Shown piece by piece: positions 1,646 through 12,235 of a DNA stretch of 64,000 nt. Source of the stretch: Candidatus Thorarchaeota archaeon (GTDB lineage Archaea; Asgardarchaeota; Thorarchaeia; Thorarchaeales; Thorarchaeaceae); the NCBI GenBank assembly GCA_011364905.1, contig RDNZ01000005.1:1-64000 (forward strand), written 5' to 3'. The notes under the pieces were generated by a model, which saw only the letters and a list, made by a program, of their open reading frames with translations, had not been told where the DNA came from and ran no database searches. Each line of letters begins with the position of its first letter. Position 1 is the stretch's first letter. A program made the position numbers and the translations under genes.

Positions 1646-3757
1646 GTGTCCCACCTCTACAAGAAATTCGTCAATGAGAGAGTCATGGACCTTGTGAACA
1701 AAGTCCAGAATATCCGCAATGTCACAATCATTGCACATATCGACCATGGAAAAACTACGCTGAGTGATTCTCTGATTGCTGAATCAGGCTTGCTCTCAAA
1801 AGAGGTCGCTGCGACAGCAAGGCTTCTTGATTACGACTTCATTGAACAAGAAAGAGGTATCACGATAAAAGCATCAGGGATTTCATTGGTTCATGTTTTC
1901 AATGGGAAAAATCATTTAATCAACCTAATAGACACTCCGGGACACATCGATTTTTCCAGCCATGTCACTAGAGGACTTAGACTCACGGATGGTGCTATAA
2001 TCCTTATTGACGTAATCGAGGGAGTAATGGTACAAACAGAAACTGTCACGAGACAAGCAATGGCAGACCTTGTCAAGCCTGTGTTATTTGTGAATAAGGT
2101 TGACAGACTTTTCCGAGAACGTAAACTGACTGGGCGTAAAGCAGCTGAGGAGATTAATAGAATAGTACGCGAATTCAACGCGATGCTGGGAAAGTATCTT
2201 GATGATGAGAGATTGGAGGAGTGGGAGGTTTCCTTTAGTAGAGGGTCGCTTAGCGTGGGCTCAGCCTTAGACAAGTGGGGGATTGATTTGAATACATTGA
2301 GAGAGAGATCTGGAGGAAGCGATTCGCCAAAAGATCTGGCAAATGCATTCATTTCAATCTTAGAAGAGATTGAACAAATCTACAAGGCGGAAGAACGAAA
2401 AGAACTAGCAGCTCAATATCCAGTTGCACGCGTTGTCTTAGACTCTGTGATTCGAGTTATACCAAATCCAAAAGTGGCACAGAAATATCGCATTCCCCTG
2501 TTTTGGGATGGCAATCCTAACTCGAAAGTTGGCAAAAGCCTGCTCAGTTGCAATGCCACCGGTCCATGCATTTGCATGGTGGGCGAGGTACAGCCAGACA
2601 AACACGCATCAACTGCAGCAGCGGTGAGAATCTTTTCTGGCACTTTGGAAAGAGCCAAACCCTTGATGAACCTACGGACAAGAGAGCAACGGAAGTCGCT
2701 ACAGATTGGGATGTATATGTCAAAGACTCGTGTGGACATATCACATGTTCCAGCAGGCAATCTGGCTTTTATAACGGGACTCAGAGATATTGCAGTTGGG
2801 GATACACTAGTAGAACTAGCAGATTTTGAGAAATTGAAGGAAACAATTAGTCCGATGAAAGCACTACAGTATCCAACAGAGCCAGTTGTGACTTATACAA
2901 TTGAACCTAGAACCCTATCGGAACTGGGGAATATCCAAGGACCTATTGAGGCATATGTCGCAACAGATCCAGCTCTTGAGTTCGAAGTCAATTCAGAAAC
3001 AGGAGAGATGCTCATCTCCGGAGCTGGCGAGCTGCACATTGAAATCACGATGGAAAAATTAGCAAGGCAGGGAATAGAGGTCATTCTTGGTAAGCCAATG
3101 GTGTTATTGAGAGAGCAACTCACAAAAGATGGGCAATCTTGTTCAGCCGAGAGTGCCACTACGAGCGCATTCACGGTGCGTGCTATAGTTGCATCGGACG
3201 CAATGCAGCCGGACTCCTTTGGCACCGTAATTGACCAAGACTATCGGTCTGCAAGCTGGATTGTTGATAGATCTGATAAGATAAGTCCATTTGGCGAAGA
3301 AACGGAGTGGATCAAGGAGGCTTTTAGAACCATTATTCGTAATGGGCCCATAAAGGGAGAACGGATGCGAAGAGTAGGTCTTTTGATTGAGAACGCTACC
3401 GTGAAATCAACGTCTCCCGAAACATCTTGGCGCGATATCACTCAACCGTTAATTGAAGCGAGTCGAAAGAGTATAACATCGGGACAACCAGTGGTCTTGG
3501 AACCATGGATACATCTCGAGATTAGCACACCTGAGGACTACGTAGGATCTTTGAGTGCAATCCTCTCAAAACGAAAAGGCCATGTGCTTGACATAAATTC
3601 GGATAGAGCTCTCTTTAGAATCGATGCTGAAATACCCGTGCGAGAATCCTTCGGATTAGCGAATGAAATCAGAACCTCAACATCCGGATGGGCAACCTGG
3701 GGGGCACGAGCAGGAGGTTTTCGGGACATCAAGAATTCTGAGGCACGATATGATTGA
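1646..3757 (+). CDS. Divergent elongation factor EF-2 paralogue lacking the diphthamide His
   Basis: G motifs AHIDHGKTT, RGITI, DTPGH, NKVD; domain III SGAGELH; domain IV shortened with no HRG motif. Confidence 0.85.
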   Translation: MSHLYKKFVNERVMDLVNKVQNIRNVTIIAHIDHGKTTLSDSLIAESGLLSKEVAATARLLDYDFIEQERGITIKASGISLVHVFNGKNHLINLIDTPGHIDFSSHVTRGLRLTDGAIILIDVIEGVMVQTETVTRQAMADLVKPVLFVNKVDRLFRERKLTGRKAAEEINRIVREFNAMLGKYLDDERLEEWEVSFSRGSLSVGSALDKWGIDLNTLRERSGGSDSPKDLANAFISILEEIEQIYKAEERKELAAQYPVARVVLDSVIRVIPNPKVAQKYRIPLFWDGNPNSKVGKSLLSCNATGPCICMVGEVQPDKHASTAAAVRIFSGTLERAKPLMNLRTREQRKSLQIGMYMSKTRVDISHVPAGNLAFITGLRDIAVGDTLVELADFEKLKETISPMKALQYPTEPVVTYTIEPRTLSELGNIQGPIEAYVATDPALEFEVNSETGEMLISGAGELHIEITMEKLARQGIEVILGKPMVLLREQLTKDGQSCSAESATTSAFTVRAIVASDAMQPDSFGTVIDQDYRSASWIVDRSDKISPFGEETEWIKEAFRTIIRNGPIKGERMRRVGLLIENATVKSTSPETSWRDITQPLIEASRKSITSGQPVVLEPWIHLEISTPEDYVGSLSAILSKRKGHVLDINSDRALFRIDAEIPVRESFGLANEIRTSTSGWATWGARAGGFRDIKNSEARYD

Positions 3758-3766
3758 TTCCTGCAA

Positions 3767-6067
3767 CTAACGTCTGATGTAAAATCTTCTGTTCATTATT
3801 GTTCCGAGTAGAGAAAGTACTCTGCGGTCTACCAATGACACACTATCTATCATTCTTATTGCTCGAGTCAAGTTCGAGAAGACAGCATTGAGGTATGGTT
3901 GCGCCTCAACCATTTCAGACTGTTCTACCATCTGAAGATATGCATGCGTGATTTTGATAAGACCAAGCCAATCTTCAGCCAGAAGGTAATTGTATTGAGT
4001 TTCATATGTGACCAGAGGACTCTCTTGAAACTTTCCTCTGTCGACGTAGGCAGCATATTGATTCTCCAAGGCAAGGGAGAAACGACGAAGAACTTGTGAC
4101 AATGATGATGATGTGGCCTTGATGAATTCAGCAGACTCGAGGAAGTCTGGTTCCATCAAAGCAACTTCTCCAAATGCTATGGCAGATCCATAAAAGCCAG
4201 TAGCCAGCTCAGAATAGTCCTTATTATCGTAAAACGCCTTTATTGTTTGAACAAGATAAGTCTGACCAAGCCAATATTGAGCAAGCAATGGGTCAGTTTC
4301 GCGAACAGCATCATCAACGGGAGGCTGTATCCGACCACCAATCTCAGCATTAAGTGCGCGCATGTTCATTTTAGCTGTTGATAGCGCTGCCACTACTCCA
4401 GCAACACCCGCGAGTTCAGATGTGCTTTGGCTCATGTTTTTCGCCCGTTCAAGAAGAGCCCTCCATGAGCTCTCCAAAAATGGCACTACCAATGAAACAC
4501 CATGTATGAACATTGAATCATCATCCATGCTAGCATCACTCAACATTCGATCAATGTCATCGAGAAGTCTCATTAGTTTGGGAGGAATGGTTCCTCCGTG
4601 GCGTGTCACTAGCCAGACAACATTGTATGTTGCAATAGCCACCTCAACAAACGCACGATTATCCGTGGGAAACAATGGCACATATTGAACCAAGATCTCG
4701 CGGAGAGGGTCTTGAATGTTAAGATCTGCTCTCTCCTTTGTTCGCATCCGTGAAAGTGCGAGTCCCATTCGAGTACCCACAAGTTCTATCTCGGAGATCC
4801 TTCCTTCAGCAAACTGTCCCTCCCGCATCTTAACAGCCCTTTCGAATGCTTCTTGGCCAGTGGCCCAGAATTCATCACATTCAGTGCTCAAACATAACCA
4901 GCCAATCGCATTCTCGGCTCTGGAGAGGTCTATATCAATATCCGGATGGTAGCCCTCTAGCTCTCCAAGCATTTCTTTTGCTCCACTCAAGTACTCCATC
5001 GATTTTGTCATGTTCTCATGATCACCGAGGAGACCGTGAGCAAAACCTAGGCTGGCAAGTGTATTGAAAACATGCATTTTCTGGTCAGGGTTCTTTTCTT
5101 CTATTAATTCGAAAATCCTTAGTCCGAGGTGAAGCTGTTCTATTGCTTGTGGAACACCTTCGCGCCAACCATTTGCGAGAATGCTTGAGCCAATGACAAC
5201 ATGAGCAAGACCGACTTCATCTCTCCCCACCTCTCCAGCTTTTAGTGCTATGTCATAAATCTCTGCAGCCTTGTTCGCGGTTTTACGAGCTTCCTGATAA
5301 GCGATTGATTCATCCCTAGTTTCATTGACTCCAAGCTGAAGAATGACAGCAGCTAGACGTACGCGGTCGTTCTTGGCACGCGCTTGTTTTTCAAGCTTCT
5401 TCAACCACTTTCGAGCTTCAGAAAACAGACGAAGCTCTGTCAAAACACGTGCATAGTCAAAGGTCACTTCGAACGTGAAATCTTTGAGTCGGACTTCACT
5501 ACCTATTTCCATCATTCTACTAAGCAGCAACTCGGCGCCTTCAAAGAAACCCTCCTCAATTAAGCTCCAAGCTAAACTGTGAACCTCGTATAATGCAAGT
5601 TGTGTTGTACCATCATGGCGCCTGTCGTAAATCGCATTTAGTGTCATAAGAACTTCATCAGCCAGAAAAGGAAGCAAGGGTCTGAGATTGAGTCTAATTG
5701 ATGAACTAAGTGCTTGAGAGAGTTCTCCCAGAATGTCGATAAGACTAGGTATGGCTTCTATGTCAGGAAGTAACTCACACTCAGTACGTCTATAATCATT
5801 CGTATACCGCGTATCAAGAAGCATAAGAAGTTCAGGTATTGCACGGTTTTTGTGAAATGACAATCGAATGGTGAGTTCAGCAAGTTTCGCACTGGCAAGC
5901 CCGGGCCTGCGAAGGATAATCTCCTCGATGGCACGTGCGATGTCATATAAAATATCTGCTTCATCGCTGTCGTTGAAAGTAACGTTCTGAACCGCTGAGA
6001 GCCCATCATCCAGAGAGAGGTTTGCACATAGAATATCTCTCAGTGTAGCTATCAGCTTTGTTTGCAA
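3767..6067 (-). CDS. Large all-helical (TPR-like solenoid) hypothetical protein
   Basis: 766 aa ORF with repeated amphipathic helix pairs (e.g. LASLGFAHGLLGD, AENAIGWLCL); TTG start with purine-rich RBS. Confidence 0.6.
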   Translation of the reverse strand: MQTKLIATLRDILCANLSLDDGLSAVQNVTFNDSDEADILYDIARAIEEIILRRPGLASAKLAELTIRLSFHKNRAIPELLMLLDTRYTNDYRRTECELLPDIEAIPSLIDILGELSQALSSSIRLNLRPLLPFLADEVLMTLNAIYDRRHDGTTQLALYEVHSLAWSLIEEGFFEGAELLLSRMMEIGSEVRLKDFTFEVTFDYARVLTELRLFSEARKWLKKLEKQARAKNDRVRLAAVILQLGVNETRDESIAYQEARKTANKAAEIYDIALKAGEVGRDEVGLAHVVIGSSILANGWREGVPQAIEQLHLGLRIFELIEEKNPDQKMHVFNTLASLGFAHGLLGDHENMTKSMEYLSGAKEMLGELEGYHPDIDIDLSRAENAIGWLCLSTECDEFWATGQEAFERAVKMREGQFAEGRISEIELVGTRMGLALSRMRTKERADLNIQDPLREILVQYVPLFPTDNRAFVEVAIATYNVVWLVTRHGGTIPPKLMRLLDDIDRMLSDASMDDDSMFIHGVSLVVPFLESSWRALLERAKNMSQSTSELAGVAGVVAALSTAKMNMRALNAEIGGRIQPPVDDAVRETDPLLAQYWLGQTYLVQTIKAFYDNKDYSELATGFYGSAIAFGEVALMEPDFLESAEFIKATSSSLSQVLRRFSLALENQYAAYVDRGKFQESPLVTYETQYNYLLAEDWLGLIKITHAYLQMVEQSEMVEAQPYLNAVFSNLTRAIRMIDSVSLVDRRVLSLLGTIMNRRFYIRR

Positions 6068-6128: not shown

Positions 6129-6842
6129 CTAACGTTCAATAACAAAATCGTGCCATTCTCGGGATGTGTCAGTGCCCCTCATCCGCTCCATCCTTATTTG
6201 GTGCCGGGGTGTTGGACCGCTGTCATCTATTCTAAATCTGAGAACTGCATCAGCAAGGTAGGAAAAGGTCGCATAGGTCTTCTCATCGTGGACACCCTCT
6301 TCGAGAATGTACATTATACTATGAGACTCCTGCTTTGTTCTACCGCTTAGCCGCTGCACCGCTCTCGGCATGGTCGTAGGACTGGAGTGCAGGATTAATG
6401 TGGAAAGGCTATCAATAACCACTCTTGCAACCACAAGTTTCTCCAAAACCTCTGACAACACAATCCCAAGCTCGCTAACATCATCAACTTTCGCTAAGGA
6501 ACGTGCAGGACCAGTGCTTGGTGCGCCCATCCGCTCGGAATAGCCATCAATGAAAACAAACTTGCCTGCAGCTTCCTGTTCATCAATTGTCCATCCATGA
6601 CGACTCATGTCATTGCGAATTACTCGAGGCGAAACATCTGTGGTGACAAAAACAGCAGGAAATCCTAATTCGACTCCCTCGGCGAGAAATGCCTCAGCAT
6701 AGGTTGTTTTTCCGGAACCGAGTGGACCCACTAGCATGTAGGACACTTGTGTCAACTGGCCGAACTTCACAAGGTCACTGATCATAGGAGTGGCTTTTGC
6801 TGGAGGCTGTATCACCTTTTGTGAGTCCTGATTCTCAACCAC
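6129..6842 (-). CDS. Single-domain KaiC/RAD55-family ATPase (CII-like)
   Basis: Walker A GPLGSGKT, Walker B VVIDS, FSYLAD, RMRG arginine finger; catalytic EE replaced by DV. Confidence 0.85.
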   Translation of the reverse strand: MVENQDSQKVIQPPAKATPMISDLVKFGQLTQVSYMLVGPLGSGKTTYAEAFLAEGVELGFPAVFVTTDVSPRVIRNDMSRHGWTIDEQEAAGKFVFIDGYSERMGAPSTGPARSLAKVDDVSELGIVLSEVLEKLVVARVVIDSLSTLILHSSPTTMPRAVQRLSGRTKQESHSIMYILEEGVHDEKTYATFSYLADAVLRFRIDDSGPTPRHQIRMERMRGTDTSREWHDFVIER

Positions 6843-6867
6843 TTTGCGGGCCTCGCTATCTCAATGG

Positions 6868-7614
6868 TTAAACCCCGGGACTGATCTCTCCGGGCCAAAC
6901 CCTGATTCCTTCATCTGTGATTCTCATTGAGTGTATCCTTGAACTATGCTTTGAACCTCTCAGTTTGAGAACCTCGATTGAACGAGATCGTGATGTGTCG
7001 CTTATCTTCTCGTTGTAAAGTACAATAACACCAGATGCTAAGAAGGCTTCGATATCAAAAACGCCCAGTCCCTGCTCCTGAGCTGGAATCTCGCTGGTCA
7101 AGAGGAGAGTACAACCTGCACGAGTGATGGTGGCAGCAAGTTTGAAGAACTCCTCCCGAAGAATATCCCGACTTTTGAACTTGTATGCCATGATAGAGAG
7201 CGTGTCAAGAACAACTCGCGTTGCTTTGATCTTCTTCACGTGATTCAAGATTATTGCCTCAAGTCCGGAAAGGTCAAAGCTCGGATATTCACCAATAGTA
7301 ACAGGTGTCACTTCCTTCGATGGCGACAAATCAACTATGGCAATCTTCTTCTCCTTCTCAAGCTTCTCTAAGTCCATACCAAAACGAAGCATGTTTCTCT
7401 TGATAAGGTGTGGCGGTTCTTCGAGAGTCACAAGCACACCAGGCTCATTATATTCGGTGGCGCCTTTGTATATGAACTGAGTTGCCAAGATACTTTTCCC
7501 AGTTCCAGCTTTTCCAGCAATGAGAATCGTATCACCTCTTGGGAAACCTCCCTCGATTAGTTCATCGAGGCCAGGAATTCCTGTCTTTACCCGTTCGATT
7601 ATAAGGTCGTTCAT
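6868..7614 (-). CDS. Single-domain KaiC-family ATPase (CI-like)
   Basis: TGIPGLDELIEGG, GKAGTGKS, EPGVLVTLEE, DLSP..FDLS, VVLDT, KLRGSKH, ITDEGIRVWP. Confidence 0.9.
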   Translation of the reverse strand: MNDLIIERVKTGIPGLDELIEGGFPRGDTILIAGKAGTGKSILATQFIYKGATEYNEPGVLVTLEEPPHLIKRNMLRFGMDLEKLEKEKKIAIVDLSPSKEVTPVTIGEYPSFDLSGLEAIILNHVKKIKATRVVLDTLSIMAYKFKSRDILREEFFKLAATITRAGCTLLLTSEIPAQEQGLGVFDIEAFLASGVIVLYNEKISDTSRSRSIEVLKLRGSKHSSRIHSMRITDEGIRVWPGEISPGV

Positions 7615-7943
7615 TTTGACCCATCCTTCTTTTTCGTCATGACCTTGGCTCCGAGTACCATCTTCATCAGCAAATCCGGTTCAGGGATACCGGTCACTGA
7701 TATGCCACCAATCATAACAGTTGGTAGGGCGAATATACCAAACTCTTCAGCCGCATCGGGGTTCTCACTGACGTTCACGACTTTGAGTTCGAAGACTTCG
7801 GAGCCAAAGTTCTCCAACGTTTCTCGTATAACCTCTTCCGCTCGAGGACAGAACGCGCAAGTGTCAGACTTGAAGAAGACAACCTCGATTTTATCGGATT
7901 TCTTCTTCTTGGTTGACGCCTTGCGTTTTTTCTTGTCCGCCAA
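7611..7943 (-). CDS. Thioredoxin-fold protein with CAFC motif, KaiB-like
   Basis: CxxC and cis-Pro motif ALPT; LKVVNVSENPDAAEE..I.A.PT resembles KaiB; stop overlaps the KaiC ATG (ATGA). Confidence 0.8.
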   Translation of the reverse strand: MADKKKRKASTKKKKSDKIEVVFFKSDTCAFCPRAEEVIRETLENFGSEVFELKVVNVSENPDAAEEFGIFALPTVMIGGISVTGIPEPDLLMKMVLGAKVMTKKKDGSK

Positions 7944-8060: not shown

Positions 8061-8441
8061 TCAGTATCTCAGCAGACGTTTGATTCTTGTGGCTGCTTTT
8101 CCTATGGGTCTTGCGTGATAACGGACATTGCGAGGCATGACTGCAGCCAAAATCAAAGCCTGTTTTCCACTGGTCCCTATTTTTTTGAAGACCGCTTTGC
8201 CTTGAGTGCACCGAAGGCTGATGTCCCTGAGATCTCCAATCATGAGTTCCTTTCTCACTCGCTCGGCAGAGTCTGATATGAATCCAGAAACCGCTGCAAC
8301 AACATCTCTGTCAGCCCCTGAAGAAACGGCGGAGGCAATAGAAAACCCGTCGTCTCTGACAAGAGAAGAGAGTGTGAATCCACCCTCCTTGTTCATTTGT
8401 TCAAGGATTTTCGGGAGGGCAGCATAGTCAGGACGGCTCAT
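8061..8441 (-). CDS. Roadblock/LC7 (MglB-like) domain protein
   Basis: 126 aa; LVRDDGFSIAS..VAAVS..AERVRKEL.IG pattern typical of Robl_LC7. Confidence 0.85.
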   Translation of the reverse strand: MSRPDYAALPKILEQMNKEGGFTLSSLVRDDGFSIASAVSSGADRDVVAAVSGFISDSAERVRKELMIGDLRDISLRCTQGKAVFKKIGTSGKQALILAAVMPRNVRYHARPIGKAATRIKRLLRY

Positions 8442-8567: not shown

Positions 8568-9125
8568 GTGAGTCTAATACCCGCTGAGTACCGTTACAAA
8601 ATTGTCATGTTAGGAGACGGTGCAGTGGGCAAAACCGCGATGACGACTCGTTTTACACAAAACTTCTTCGAAGCCGATTACAAACGAACAATTGGCAGTG
8701 ATTTCGCAATCAAACGACTCACGATTGATGATATTGATGCGCAGGTCACGTTGCAGGTATGGGACCTCGCTGGACAGCCAAGGTTTGAGTCTGTGAGACA
8801 GGGATTCTACAGAGGGGCGAGAGGTGGTCTCTTGCTCTATGATGTGACGCGTAGACGAACCTTTCTGAATGTTGAAAACTGGAAAGAGGAAGCATTCGCC
8901 AACCTCCAAAAAGAAATCCCACTGATTTTGGTAGCAAACAAGGTGGACCTTGAAGACAGTCGAGTGGTCGCAACGGAGGAGGGTGAGAAATACGCGAAGA
9001 AAAACAAACTCATCTACGTGGAGTCTAGTGCACTCACTGGGGAGAATGTTGAAGATGCATATCTCAACCTGTGCAGAACTATGATTGAAGACTCAAAGAG
9101 TGCAAACGGAGCAAATTCGGTTTAA
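8568..9125 (+). CDS. Rab-like small GTPase
   Basis: GDGAVGKT, TIGSDF, WDLAGQ, FYRGA, NKVD, ESSA; no C-terminal prenylation Cys. Confidence 0.92.
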   Translation: MSLIPAEYRYKIVMLGDGAVGKTAMTTRFTQNFFEADYKRTIGSDFAIKRLTIDDIDAQVTLQVWDLAGQPRFESVRQGFYRGARGGLLLYDVTRRRTFLNVENWKEEAFANLQKEIPLILVANKVDLEDSRVVATEEGEKYAKKNKLIYVESSALTGENVEDAYLNLCRTMIEDSKSANGANSV

Positions 9126-9131
9126 TCCAAC

Positions 9132-10259
9132 TTATTTTTTCCTAGGTGTGCCTTTCAGCAAATCAAGCTCTCGTTTGCATTGCCATACAAGATAGAATAT
9201 CTTCTTGGTCGCTAGGGTTTCTTCATCATAGTTAGAACAGAGATTCTCAAACTTCTGGATCAAGCTGTCTCTGGTTGCAGGACTATTGGTGGATTTAATC
9301 TCATCTAGGAGTGCCTCAAAGGGAGCCATGGTGGATGCAAGGTCGGTGACCTCCCAACGAATTATCGCGCCAGTACCATCTGCGGTGAGGAAAGACGATG
9401 TCTTGGGATACCACTCAATTCCATCAATCTCACCCATCGTTGACGCTTCGCCTAGAGTTTCAAACTTGGCTGTATCCCAAAGGTAGACCGTCTTATCGCT
9501 CGAACCAGAGGCAAGATATTTGCCATCCTCACTGAAACAGAGAGCTCGAACCTCTGTGTTATGAGCATGAAGAACCTGCTCGACTCTCATGGGAGTACCG
9601 GCTGAATCCCAGAGAATCAGACTAAGATCTGACGAGCCCGAAGCAAGTTTTAATCCATCGAATGAGAATCGGACCTGATGAACTGCTGCACGATGGTCAC
9701 TATGACGGTGGAGCATCTCGCCAGAGTTTGCGTCCCACTCGCAGATATTGGCATCTACAGACCCAGATACGATTCGATTGCCCTGTGGGTCCCAGTCGCA
9801 TGTCACGACGTAGAAGCCATGCCCTTTCAAATGATGCTTCATGGTATGGTCTTCAACATCCCAAATCATGAGAGTCGTGTCTCCACTTCCTGAAACCAGT
9901 TCGTTCCCATCAGGTGAAAATGCAAGTGAAAGAATGGGATACTCATGGCCACCCATTGTGGCCAGGCAGTCGCCTGTTTTAATATCCCAAAGCTTCACAA
10001 CTCGTTCTACACTTCCGGTCGCAAGGATATCACCTTTTGGACTAAAGGCAATAGATGTGCAGAGAAATTCATCCTGCATACGTTGCATTTCTTCACCAGT
10101 ATCTGCGAAATAAAGACGGATGCTTCGATCCTGTAACGCAGCAGCAAACATCCTTCCAACTCTGTTCATGGCAAAGCGTCGAGTAATCTCTGACCCACGC
10201 TCAGCTTGATCCCGCAGGATTATTGGCTTGAGGAAAATCGAGGACTCTTGGCTCTCCAT
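9132..10259 (-). CDS. WD40 beta-propeller protein with short helical C-terminus
   Basis: About 7 repeats of GH..V..FSPDG..LASGS.D..V.LWD. Confidence 0.92.
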   Translation of the reverse strand: MESQESSIFLKPIILRDQAERGSEITRRFAMNRVGRMFAAALQDRSIRLYFADTGEEMQRMQDEFLCTSIAFSPKGDILATGSVERVVKLWDIKTGDCLATMGGHEYPILSLAFSPDGNELVSGSGDTTLMIWDVEDHTMKHHLKGHGFYVVTCDWDPQGNRIVSGSVDANICEWDANSGEMLHRHSDHRAAVHQVRFSFDGLKLASGSSDLSLILWDSAGTPMRVEQVLHAHNTEVRALCFSEDGKYLASGSSDKTVYLWDTAKFETLGEASTMGEIDGIEWYPKTSSFLTADGTGAIIRWEVTDLASTMAPFEALLDEIKSTNSPATRDSLIQKFENLCSNYDEETLATKKIFYLVWQCKRELDLLKGTPRKK

Positions 10260-10442
10260 TTATGTCACGCACAGACCTATTTTTGGCAGCTCGAGGCAGG
10301 AGGCTGCGTAAAAGTGTTGTTAATACGTCGTTAAAGAACTCGTATATCTAAGCATTATGCGTCCGGTCACACCAAGAAATTAATGTCACATCACAGCAAT
10401 CATTATCAAGCGTCGAAATGCCCGTCAGTAGGAGGGTGACCC

Positions 10443-11666
10443 TTGGCTGAGAAAGACGAGAGAAAAATTCTATCCGCACTTGGTGGAGGAGAGTCTGTAA
10501 GTCGTCTTAGGAAAGCAGTTAGAGGGGTACTGAGAAAATCAGATGATGCCGTAGACAAAATGCTGTCAGAACTAACGAGTATTCAGGCCTGTAAGGATGC
10601 CGCATTGACTGGAGATGATGATATCCGGCTTTTGGCTGTCTGCAGACTTGGGGAGTTTGGCGCAGAAGCGTTTGAAGCTCTCGATATATCTCTCAATGAT
10701 GAAAATCCTCTGGTTAGGACCATGGCTGCTGGAATGCTGGCGTTTACCGAGGATAAAGAAGCAATAGACATCTTGAAACCCTATCTCCGTGACAATGACG
10801 AAACAGTAAGAGATGCTGTCAAATACTCCCTCGGTTGGCTTGAGAAAAATGCATCAGAGAAGCTCCATGGAACAAGAATTCCCGACAGGTGTGAGAATCC
10901 AGCAGAGATTCTACTCGATTCTGATGCAATACCATTGAAAACTTCGGAAGATGTGGAAGTGACTAGTACCTATTCAGCGCAGCCTGAAAGTCTCGAATTT
11001 GGGATGACAATTGAGAACAATACTCTGGAGTCAATTCATGAGGTTTGCATCAAAGTCTTGTCGTATCCAAAAGAGAGTTTGGAGCCATTAGATTCGCTTA
11101 ATCAAAATATTGAGGCGATAGAACCAGGCGGGACAGAAGCACTGATTTTCGGGTTCAAGGTGACCCATGAAATCGTGGAAGGAGAGTTTGTCACTTCGGT
11201 CCAGTTTATTGATTCCAACGGTGAAGACATTGCTGCAATCTCGGGCAACATCTTTGTGAGATCCCTTTTCGAACAAATACTTCCACTTGATATGACACCT
11301 GAGGAGCTTCTCAGTCTGAAATCGGAAATGAAGGAGTGGAACAGAGAACACTCACTGGCTGTAGAAGCAAAGGAGCTGTTTGAAATTCTTAAGGATCTTT
11401 ACCAGAGTTGGAATCTACATATTATCCAAACTGAAAACACTGAGAGAAAGAAGCTCTTCATGGGAGTCATATCCGGATCCGCAAAGGGAAGAATCAATCA
11501 AAGTAAGTTGGTGGTCACTCTCACTGTCGTGGGTAGACTGAATGATAACCTCTCAAAACTACGCATTGATGTTCTGTCAGAAGACCCAGAAGCATTGCAC
11601 ACAATCGCCAGTGTGCTGTTTGAAACAATTCAGAGAAAACTAGGCGTTATAGAAATGGAAGACTAA
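10443..11666 (+). CDS. HEAT-repeat protein with adaptin/COP appendage-like C-terminus
   Basis: HEAT-PBS repeats (DENPLVRTMAA, DNDETVRDAV), Ig-like segment (MTIENN..IEPGG), platform-like alpha/beta tail. Confidence 0.65.
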   Translation: MAEKDERKILSALGGGESVSRLRKAVRGVLRKSDDAVDKMLSELTSIQACKDAALTGDDDIRLLAVCRLGEFGAEAFEALDISLNDENPLVRTMAAGMLAFTEDKEAIDILKPYLRDNDETVRDAVKYSLGWLEKNASEKLHGTRIPDRCENPAEILLDSDAIPLKTSEDVEVTSTYSAQPESLEFGMTIENNTLESIHEVCIKVLSYPKESLEPLDSLNQNIEAIEPGGTEALIFGFKVTHEIVEGEFVTSVQFIDSNGEDIAAISGNIFVRSLFEQILPLDMTPEELLSLKSEMKEWNREHSLAVEAKELFEILKDLYQSWNLHIIQTENTERKKLFMGVISGSAKGRINQSKLVVTLTVVGRLNDNLSKLRIDVLSEDPEALHTIASVLFETIQRKLGVIEMED

Positions 11667-11668
11667 CT

Positions 11669-12235
11669 CTAGGCTAGTCCACCAGCCTCAAGAATCTTAA
11701 TGGCTAGTTCTAAGAAAGCAGCCTCAACGTTTTGTCCAGTTTTTGCACTTGTTTCAAGAAATGAGGTTATAACACCCTGAGAGGCAATCTTGTTGGCTAG
11801 TTGCAGTCCCTCTTCAGTGGTTACAATAGTCTGAGCCATCACAGGATTGTCCTTGAATTGGTCACGGAGGTCGGTCTTGTTTGCAATAAGAACGATTGGA
11901 ATCTTCTTGTTAGCATTGGTCCAGCATTCTTCTACCCAGTTCATGAGGTTATCGAAGGATTTTCTCTCCACGGTAGAATAGACAGCTAGTGCCCCCTGCG
12001 CACCTTTGTAGAAGGTCGAACGGACACTCTTGAAGTGTTCCTGCCCGGCAAGGTCCCAAATCTGTATCGACACATCATGGCCGCCCTCTAGCTGCATCTT
12101 CTTAACAGCGAAGTCTGCCCCGATGGTGATCATATAGTTTGCACGGAAACCTTCCCCCATGTAGGTTCGGCGGAGACTGGTCTTACCGACACTTCCATCT
12201 CCCATCAATACAACCTTGAACAGTGCAGTGACCAT
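11669..12235 (-). CDS. Rab-like small GTPase
   Basis: GDGSVGKT, TIGADF, WDLAGQ, FYKGA, NKTD, ETSAK. Confidence 0.92.
   Translation of the reverse strand: MVTALFKVVLMGDGSVGKTSLRRTYMGEGFRANYMITIGADFAVKKMQLEGGHDVSIQIWDLAGQEHFKSVRSTFYKGAQGALAVYSTVERKSFDNLMNWVEECWTNANKKIPIVLIANKTDLRDQFKDNPVMAQTIVTTEEGLQLANKIASQGVITSFLETSAKTGQNVEAAFLELAIKILEAGGLA

Follow-up and report, generated by a model that had tools for sequence, protein, structure and literature searches.

Gene content and junctions of the locus

The DNA analysed here (the window) comprises positions 1–64,000 of contig RDNZ01000005.1 from Candidatus Thorarchaeota archaeon (GCA_011364905.1); the names carried by close homologues also point to Thorarchaeota. 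Five co-directional genes on its minus strand run in the order Roadblock, trx, ATPase1, ATPase2 and a 766-amino acid TPR-like protein (Table 1). The three central genes, which encode a small CxxC thioredoxin and two members of the KaiC ATPase family, are the subject of this analysis; a first-pass annotation had read them as a KaiBC module, i.e. a KaiB-like thioredoxin followed by a KaiC split into CI-like and CII-like genes. When coordinates and motifs were re-read, the order trx–ATPase1–ATPase2 and the coupling of the first two genes through an ATGA overlap were both found as that annotation had described them. For comparison, 400 genomes of the phylum were searched, among which "the family" denotes family f1 and "the sister family" denotes f2; the family genomes are kin, and counts among them show conservation within a clade and not independent events. 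The 4-nucleotide overlap between trx and ATPase1 is present in 25 of 43 related loci, and the junction lies between −20 and +7 nucleotides in 41 of the 42 other loci. The value of −744 computed for the remaining locus (L043) is a read-through artefact. These junctions, together with the synteny described below, bear out the three genes as a conserved, tightly coupled unit. A selenocysteine in trx was considered for three relatives, each recorded with one TGA, and was rejected; in the one that was read (genome G351, locus L043), the TGA is the stop codon.

Table 1. Features of the locus, with positions in the window
Feature	Position	Strand	Remarks
trx, CxxC thioredoxin, MJ0307-like	7611..7943	-	110 amino acids; TTG start; CAFC at residues 29-32; ALPT cis-Pro motif
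ATGA stop/start overlap, trx stop with ATPase1 start	7611..7614	-	read from sequence
ATPase1, single-domain KaiC-family ATPase	6868..7614	-	248 amino acids; Walker A GKAGTGKS; EPGVLVTLEE; IVDLSPSKEVTPVTIGEYPSFDLSGL
ATPase2, degenerate KaiC paralogue (iKaiC, DUF7504-like)	6129..6842	-	237 amino acids; Walker A GPLGSGKT; VFVTTDVSP; FSYLAD
Roadblock/LC7 (MglB-like) protein	8061..8441	-	heads the co-directional run
Helical TPR-like protein	3767..6067	-	766 amino acids; ends the run
Rab-like small GTPase, Thor-Rab orthologue	8568..9125	+	divergent from the operon; Pfam Ras 179.6 bits
EF-2 paralogue	1646-3757	+	convergent with the operon end, 9 nucleotides from the TPR-like gene
WD40 protein and second Rab-like GTPase	9132-12235		beyond Thor-Rab

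The thioredoxin and the two KaiC-family ATPases

The trx product was assigned using a combination of profile searches and an AlphaFold2 model. It scored 34 bits with Thioredoxin_3 of Pfam and 52 bits with TIGR00411, the MJ0307 family, under the equivalog cut-off of 92.75 for that model, and belongs to an MJ0307-related but distinct subfamily. Against sequences in the PDB, 1FO5 (MJ0307) was matched with 49.7 bits by the single sequence and with 63.5 bits by a profile of 27 orthologues, which also matched 1NHO (MTH895) with 50.6 bits. The CxxC motif is present in 31 of 31 orthologues, and the CAFC site, located where the first-pass annotation had placed it, and the cis-proline of ALPT are invariant in 27 to 31 orthologues. 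Retention of the thioredoxin fold, also part of that annotation, was upheld by the AlphaFold2 model (pLDDT 85.6), a plain thioredoxin fold with a C-terminal helix, for which Foldseek returned thioredoxins and NrdH at the top of the list (TM-score (TM) 0.61–0.76). With this fold, the CxxC motif, the cis-proline and a core of about 85 amino acids, trx falls within the thioredoxin family. Length class is a further feature shared with MJ0307 and MTH895, but trx differs from both in its CAFC site, its Lys-rich tails and the fixed position of its gene ahead of a KaiC ATPase, as well as in scoring below the equivalog cut-off. The tails (KKKRK...KKKK and KKKDGSK; 7890–7943 and 7614–7640 of the minus strand) are kept within the genus, and the sister family has an acidic N-terminal tail instead. 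Elsewhere in the host genome at least three canonical thioredoxins are encoded, and trx is at most 29% identical to the other redoxins of the genome; by both observations, trx is a specialised paralogue.

The proposed likeness of trx to KaiB was examined at several levels. An ungapped alignment of the kind claimed at first exists, with KaiB residues 24–65 aligning to trx 35–76 at 20–21 bits (E 0.003–0.008), but it is not specific to KaiB. With the profile of 27 orthologues, KaiB entries of the PDB scored 22–24 bits (E 3e-4 to 1.5e-3, profile positions 16–58 only) against the 63.5 bits of MJ0307, and E. coli-type thioredoxins reached the same 22–24-bit level as KaiB. When trx residues 34–80, the supposed KaiB-like segment, were searched alone, the best score was again that of MJ0307 (28.8 bits), followed by thioredoxins (22–24) and then KaiB (20–21). 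The Pfam KaiB model (PF07689) was matched with 27.5 bits at a cut-off of 27, over positions 17–55 of 82 only; all 27 of 27 orthologues matched it, with scores barely at the cut-off and less than half of the model covered, and trx alone did so among the thioredoxin-fold genes of the genome. With TIGR02654 (KaiB) the score was 22 bits at a cut-off of 145, and in the Foldseek ranking fold-switched KaiB (5JYT) came 19th (TM 0.63, root mean square deviation (rmsd) 4.6). Since KaiB scores no better than ordinary thioredoxins and the model is only partly covered, the likeness is real but at the level of the thioredoxin superfamily. Assignment as a KaiB-like protein was not sustained: the match to the KaiB model is partial and below the Thioredoxin_3 score, the redox CxxC is kept, and the profile searches favour MJ0307 and MTH895.

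ATPase1 matched the KaiC domain family PF06745 with 240.7 bits and carries Walker A, Walker B, the Glu pair and the Arg finger of that family. All 27 orthologues compared retain Walker A (G34–S41), E65–E66, D137 and R219 unchanged, and with this complete motif set ATPase1 is predicted to be catalytically intact. In comparisons with two-domain KaiC, the CI half was consistently preferred, with 179 bits for CI and 78 bits for CII of the 8ZN5 KaiC, and 151 and 61 bits, respectively, for S. elongatus KaiC; the CI hallmarks noted at first (EPGVLVTLEE and a B-loop-like segment) are indeed present. The highly conserved loop IVDLSPSKEVTPVTIGEYPSFDLSGL, ending FDLSGL, falls on the CI B-loop region in the alignment. 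Single-domain KaiCs lacking a thioredoxin neighbour carry loops of equal length, and the likeness of ATPase1 to CI, B-loop-like segment included, is shared by other single-domain archaeal KaiCs. With the circadian KaiC models TIGR02655 and NF006799, ATPase1 scored 157 bits (cut-off 546) and 205 bits (cut-off 408) over the CI half only, and neither ATPase1 nor ATPase2 has the two fused domains of about 500 amino acids or the cut-off score of circadian KaiC.

ATPase2 is a degenerate member of the same family, scoring 104 bits with PF06745 and 46 bits with DUF7504 (PF24336; cut-off 27). The P-loop, Walker B and the Arg of the RG motif are kept. The absence of the catalytic Glu pair, noted in the first-pass annotation, was verified: T68–D69 takes its place, and the sequence TTDVSPR around it is invariant in the orthologues, including that of the sister family. 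The annotation had also placed FSYLAD at the ISTITD site of CII, with Ser at the S431 and Tyr at the T432 position. HMMER reproduced this register, with S194 on S431, in a weak CII alignment (14 bits); S194 is invariant, and Y195 is replaced by Phe in the sister family. The further claim that ATPase2 is a CII-like gene did not hold, since CI scored above CII in every comparison: 44 against 14 bits for KaiC, and 63 against 35 bits for the halves of two-domain KaiC. With TIGR02655 and NF006799 the scores were 39 and 61 bits, and the NCBIfam KaiC models align through their CI half only. In addition to its higher CI score, ATPase2 has TD in place of the E318/E319 pair and Tyr or Phe at the Thr position of CII. 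With a KaiC fold, a lost catalytic residue and an active KaiC adjacent, it instead fits the iKaiC/DUF7504 group; other lineages likewise have related DUF7504 genes behind active KaiCs.

Archaea often carry KaiC genes in tandem. The pair studied here resembles PH0186 and PH0284 and the thermo_KaiC_1/2 pairs of Thermococcales in domain and size (PH0186 with ATPase1, 171 bits; PH0284 with ATPase2, 66 bits, the best match of ATPase2 among solved structures), but differs in that both ATPases score below the NCBIfam cut-offs for those families and have other neighbours.

Trees were built from 111 two-domain KaiCs, split into N- and C-terminal domains, 22 single-domain relatives, ATPase1 and ATPase2 from six genomes, and two paralogues of the genome; the sample, which also took in named KaiCs, was picked by likeness to ATPase1 and is biased accordingly. 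In a FastTree tree of 258 rows, ATPase1 and nine single-domain proteins share a clade (support 96), and both ATPases lie inside the single-domain group, on the N-domain side and apart from the C-domain clade. A quick tree search proved poor, in that a constrained tree scored above it, and a careful IQ-TREE run was then made. In the resulting maximum-likelihood tree (76 rows), ATPase2 belongs to a set of single-domain proteins and N-domains (ultrafast bootstrap 95, SH-aLRT 86). Joining ATPase2 to the C domains lowered the log-likelihood by 9.5, with p 0.27 in the approximately unbiased (AU) test. As ATPase2 forms a long branch and the AU p is 0.27, the tree leans against an affinity of ATPase2 with CII and goes no further than that. 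Both ATPases nest among single-domain archaeal KaiCs, and a state of KaiC before its fusion, as had been suggested, is therefore not indicated. A metagenome protein of 497 amino acids (P0122) is a two-domain KaiC whose halves are 43% and 39% identical to ATPase1, with FDLSGL in the N-terminal half; it resembles an ATPase1-type protein that was fused in tandem comparatively recently.

Neighbouring genes and conservation of the gene order

The divergent GTPase matched the crystallised "Thorarchaeota Rab" (PDB 7EZB) with 340 bits (E 2e-101) over residues 4–180, and is the orthologue of this Thor-Rab. A second Rab-like GTPase, beyond the first, is about 40% identical to it. The paper on the Thor-Rab structure does not discuss its genomic context, and in MK-D1 small GTPase genes generally lie outside Roadblock operons, which makes partners hard to predict (PMC10933270).

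For the Roadblock protein, the window sequence itself reached 18.3 bits with Robl_LC7, under the Pfam cut-off of 23, and 14 of 14 orthologues matched the model (best E 2.2e-7). The AlphaFold2 model (pLDDT 83.7) has the order alpha-beta-beta-alpha-beta-beta-beta-alpha and superposes on MK-D1 Roadblock3 (TM 0.85, rmsd 1.5) and on MglA-bound MglB (TM 0.87) in Foldseek. By the orthologue matches and this fold, assignment to the Roadblock/LC7 (MglB-like) family is firm. As in MglA/MglB and Rag–Ragulator, a Ras-superfamily GTPase is encoded beside an MglB-like Roadblock protein; in contrast to those systems, the GTPase here is Rab-like and is joined to a trx–KaiC–iKaiC unit. We know of no GTPase-activating or guanine nucleotide exchange activity for the Thor-Rab/Roadblock pair. 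The 766-amino acid protein had no Pfam match, and its look-alikes in a language-model comparison were TPR families (0.92–0.94, a weak signal).

Orthologues of ATPase2 were found in 76 of 85 family genomes and in the one sister-family genome, and in none of the other 314 genomes searched, where the best match was 33% identical. The order Roadblock–trx–ATPase1–ATPase2–TPR was held, within the reach of the sequence fetched, at 29 family loci from ten genera. When wider flanks were taken from 12 further family genomes, the full block, with Rab divergent from Roadblock–trx–KaiC–iKaiC–TPR, was present in 11; the WD40 protein and the second Rab were kept in 10, one more locus had Thor-Rab only, and the EF-2 paralogue was the convergent neighbour in all 12. 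In the sister family, Rab, Roadblock, trx, KaiC and iKaiC lie on one strand with Rab at the head, and the convergent EF-2 paralogue directly follows the degenerate KaiC; the WD40 protein and second Rab were not found in the stretch fetched. At the loci compared, adjacency of the three central genes is conserved across the family and kept in the sister family.

A profile search of the 400 phylum genomes detected relatives of trx directly upstream of ATPase1-like KaiCs (39–42% identical) in two Atabeyarchaeia genomes, e.g. CP147779.1, where the order is trx–KaiC–RagA/Gtr1-like GTPase (L046: 4074-7296; L047: 3535-6714). One metagenome contig repeats this order with a RagA-like GTPase, and a genome of family f18 has trx–trx–KaiC followed by a degenerate KaiC of DUF7504 type. 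The Atabeyarchaeial pair is preceded by a small winged helix-turn-helix protein and by proteins of 139 and 153 amino acids without a detectable family; the latter two were considered as Roadblock-like and discarded, having no similarity to the Roadblock profile. Some close single-domain KaiCs adjoin small GTPases with no visible thioredoxin, and other near relatives of ATPase1 stand in KaiC–KaiC–DUF7504 runs or among unrelated neighbours. Such a run is headed by the nearest relative of ATPase1 outside Thorarchaeia (GCA_964633445.1, L052: 4001-6095); its third gene is 29% identical to ATPase2, and a thioredoxin is absent. Outside Asgard, trx-like genes found with the Atabeyarchaeial query (in Desulfurobacterium and Methanosarcinales) have no KaiC neighbour. 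The trx–KaiC pair and the KaiC–GTPase link each recur in distant Asgard lineages, and neither is universal.

Other KaiC paralogues of the host genome have different partners and no thioredoxin neighbour. One, on contig C68 (L032: 1531-5580), is divergent from a 531-amino acid TPR protein and a GvpD/KaiC-like ATPase of 460 amino acids, and another, on contig C61 (L031: 3225-4450), follows an AsnC-type helix-turn-helix gene.

Interpretation of the module

For archaea, both KaiC hubs and inactivated KaiC domains have been described (PMC5847659, in a passage citing Makarova, Galperin and Koonin 2017). The locus is like these hubs in setting a single-domain KaiC ATPase beside a degenerate paralogue and small input and output proteins, in the match of ATPase2 to both KaiC and DUF7504 models, and in the KaiC–KaiC–DUF7504 runs found elsewhere. 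It differs in its partners: a CxxC thioredoxin dedicated to the module, a Roadblock protein, and a GTPase of the eukaryote-like Rab or Rag type. In the literature searched, no paper joined KaiC with an Asgard GTPase, Roadblock or thioredoxin. On balance we favour, with some reserve, an Asgard signalling cassette conserved by lineage, with a KaiC-family ATPase at its centre, a redox input and a GTPase switch; it would be one of the archaeal KaiC hubs. Neither a clock nor a KaiC divided into CI and CII is supported.

In such a cassette ATPase1 would be the working enzyme, a single-domain and probably ring-forming ATPase that might also be an autokinase. ATPase2 would be an inactivated paralogue, with nucleotide binding probably retained and hydrolysis lost, and could act as a regulatory or adaptor subunit alongside ATPase1. 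The thioredoxin, as a dedicated redox-active paralogue made together with ATPase1 through the stop/start overlap, would provide the redox input. Roadblock and the divergent Thor-Rab may constitute an MglB/MglA-like switch that is either a partner or the output of the ATPase pair, and the TPR-like protein may be a family-specific scaffold. The physical contacts and the direction of signalling in this scheme we infer; the families, motifs, thioredoxin and Roadblock folds and synteny are those reported above.

How trx might act on its neighbours was considered from their cysteines. ATPase2 lacks Cys altogether, ATPase1 has a single one that 23 of 32 orthologues share, and C78 of Roadblock and C169 of Rab hold within the family but are replaced in the sister family; no disulphide target conserved across the order was found in ATPase1, ATPase2, Roadblock or Rab. 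Regulation of the neighbours by reduction of a conserved disulphide is thus probably not the mechanism. This leaves two options for trx, namely binding to ATPase1 that depends on redox state, or a substrate encoded elsewhere. Because no co-encoded Cys is conserved across the order, redox-dependent binding to ATPase1 would be likelier than disulphide reduction.

Several observations weigh against the signalling cassette. Binding does not follow from gene order alone, and a CxxC that never varies points to real thiol chemistry with some substrate. The TPR gene is absent in the sister family, and Rab is absent from one family locus (L065). Beyond Thorarchaeia, the trx–KaiC pair was found in three genomes and one metagenome contig only, and a thioredoxin is missing beside several of the nearest KaiC relatives. 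Makarova et al. 2017 may already list a thioredoxin or GTPase link.

Some of the same evidence would suit a plain redox enzyme that acts on a substrate encoded elsewhere and whose position reflects co-expression or inherited order, with no direct link to the ATPases or GTPase. The invariant CxxC and cis-proline, closest relatives that are ordinary archaeal redoxins, and neighbours that lack a conserved Cys all fit such an enzyme, and the synteny comes mostly from one order of kin genomes. Yet the overlap, or a junction of −20 to +7 nucleotides, is kept across that order, two distant Asgard lineages also have the pair, among otherwise different neighbours, and trx, with its low identity to the redoxins of the genome, is a distinct paralogue; we consider this explanation unlikely. 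Rather less credible to us is a role for the ATPases as RadA/RadB-like accessories of recombination or repair, with the thioredoxin in DNA metabolism. KaiC is a member of the RecA/RadA superfamily, and weak sub-threshold matches to DnaB_C and RadA were seen, but RadA, RadB and DnaB models give bit scores 10-fold below those of KaiC models, and the neighbours in Thorarchaeia include no DNA-binding or nuclease genes, the conserved partners being the GTPase, Roadblock and the TPR protein. Together these make that role very improbable.

In outline the locus may be compared with kaiBC operons, in which kaiB precedes kaiC, and with the docking of KaiB or the SasA N-domain on the CI B-loop (5JWO, 5JYT, 6X61). 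On that model, trx would be a KaiB analogue locked in the thioredoxin fold and gated by redox state on the ATPase1 B-loop, the two ATPases would stack or mix like CI and CII, with Ser194 of ATPase2 as a phosphosite, and the whole would be a timer or hourglass without KaiA. A thioredoxin-fold gene does stand directly ahead of a CI-like KaiC and is coupled to it, as in kaiBC. The conserved ATPase1 loop ends in FDLSGL at the place of the CI B-loop; the local match of trx to KaiB 24–65 is significant, extends to the KaiB model in every orthologue and is the only such match among the thioredoxin-fold genes of the genome. The invariant Ser194 is placed on S431 by the weak CII alignment, the missing Cys target in the neighbours favours a binding role, and the AU test tolerates ATPase2 with CII at p 0.27. 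Against this, trx scores about 40 bits higher with MJ0307-type proteins than with KaiB and keeps CxxC and cis-proline, and single-domain KaiCs lacking a neighbouring thioredoxin also have loops as long as the B-loop. ATPase1 is a single-domain KaiC, and ATPase2 is not CII-like: it is nearer to CI by every score and in the maximum-likelihood tree, it lacks the Glu pair required for the CII autokinase, and Tyr195 becomes Phe in the sister family. KaiA, SasA and CikA are absent here. We regard a timer of this type as quite unlikely.

A narrower form of KaiB-like docking may be set within the favoured signalling cassette. Here trx would be a redox-sensing, KaiB-like partner that docks on the B-loop-like segment of ATPase1 in one redox state only and gates assembly of ATPase1 with iKaiC, and through it the Roadblock/Thor-Rab switch, and the trx–KaiC pairs would be relatives of the ancestral state of KaiB. 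This is speculative, and we think it improbable as a whole; if true, KaiB would have arisen from such a trx–KaiC state as a thioredoxin fold that lost its cysteines.

What is known of the arrangement is its kind, the KaiC hub; what is new is a KaiC-centred signalling module tied to a dedicated thioredoxin and a eukaryote-like GTPase/Roadblock switch. Small GTPases and Roadblock proteins of Asgard archaea attract study as precursors of the switches in eukaryotic membrane traffic. The fixed Roadblock and trx–KaiC–iKaiC neighbours of Thor-Rab would provide purifiable candidates for its regulators and upstream signal, and the idea of the archaeal KaiC hub would be extended to eukaryote-like GTPase switches. 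The locus would also offer a natural thioredoxin-then-KaiC pair on which a possible beginning of KaiB-type docking on KaiC may be tested.

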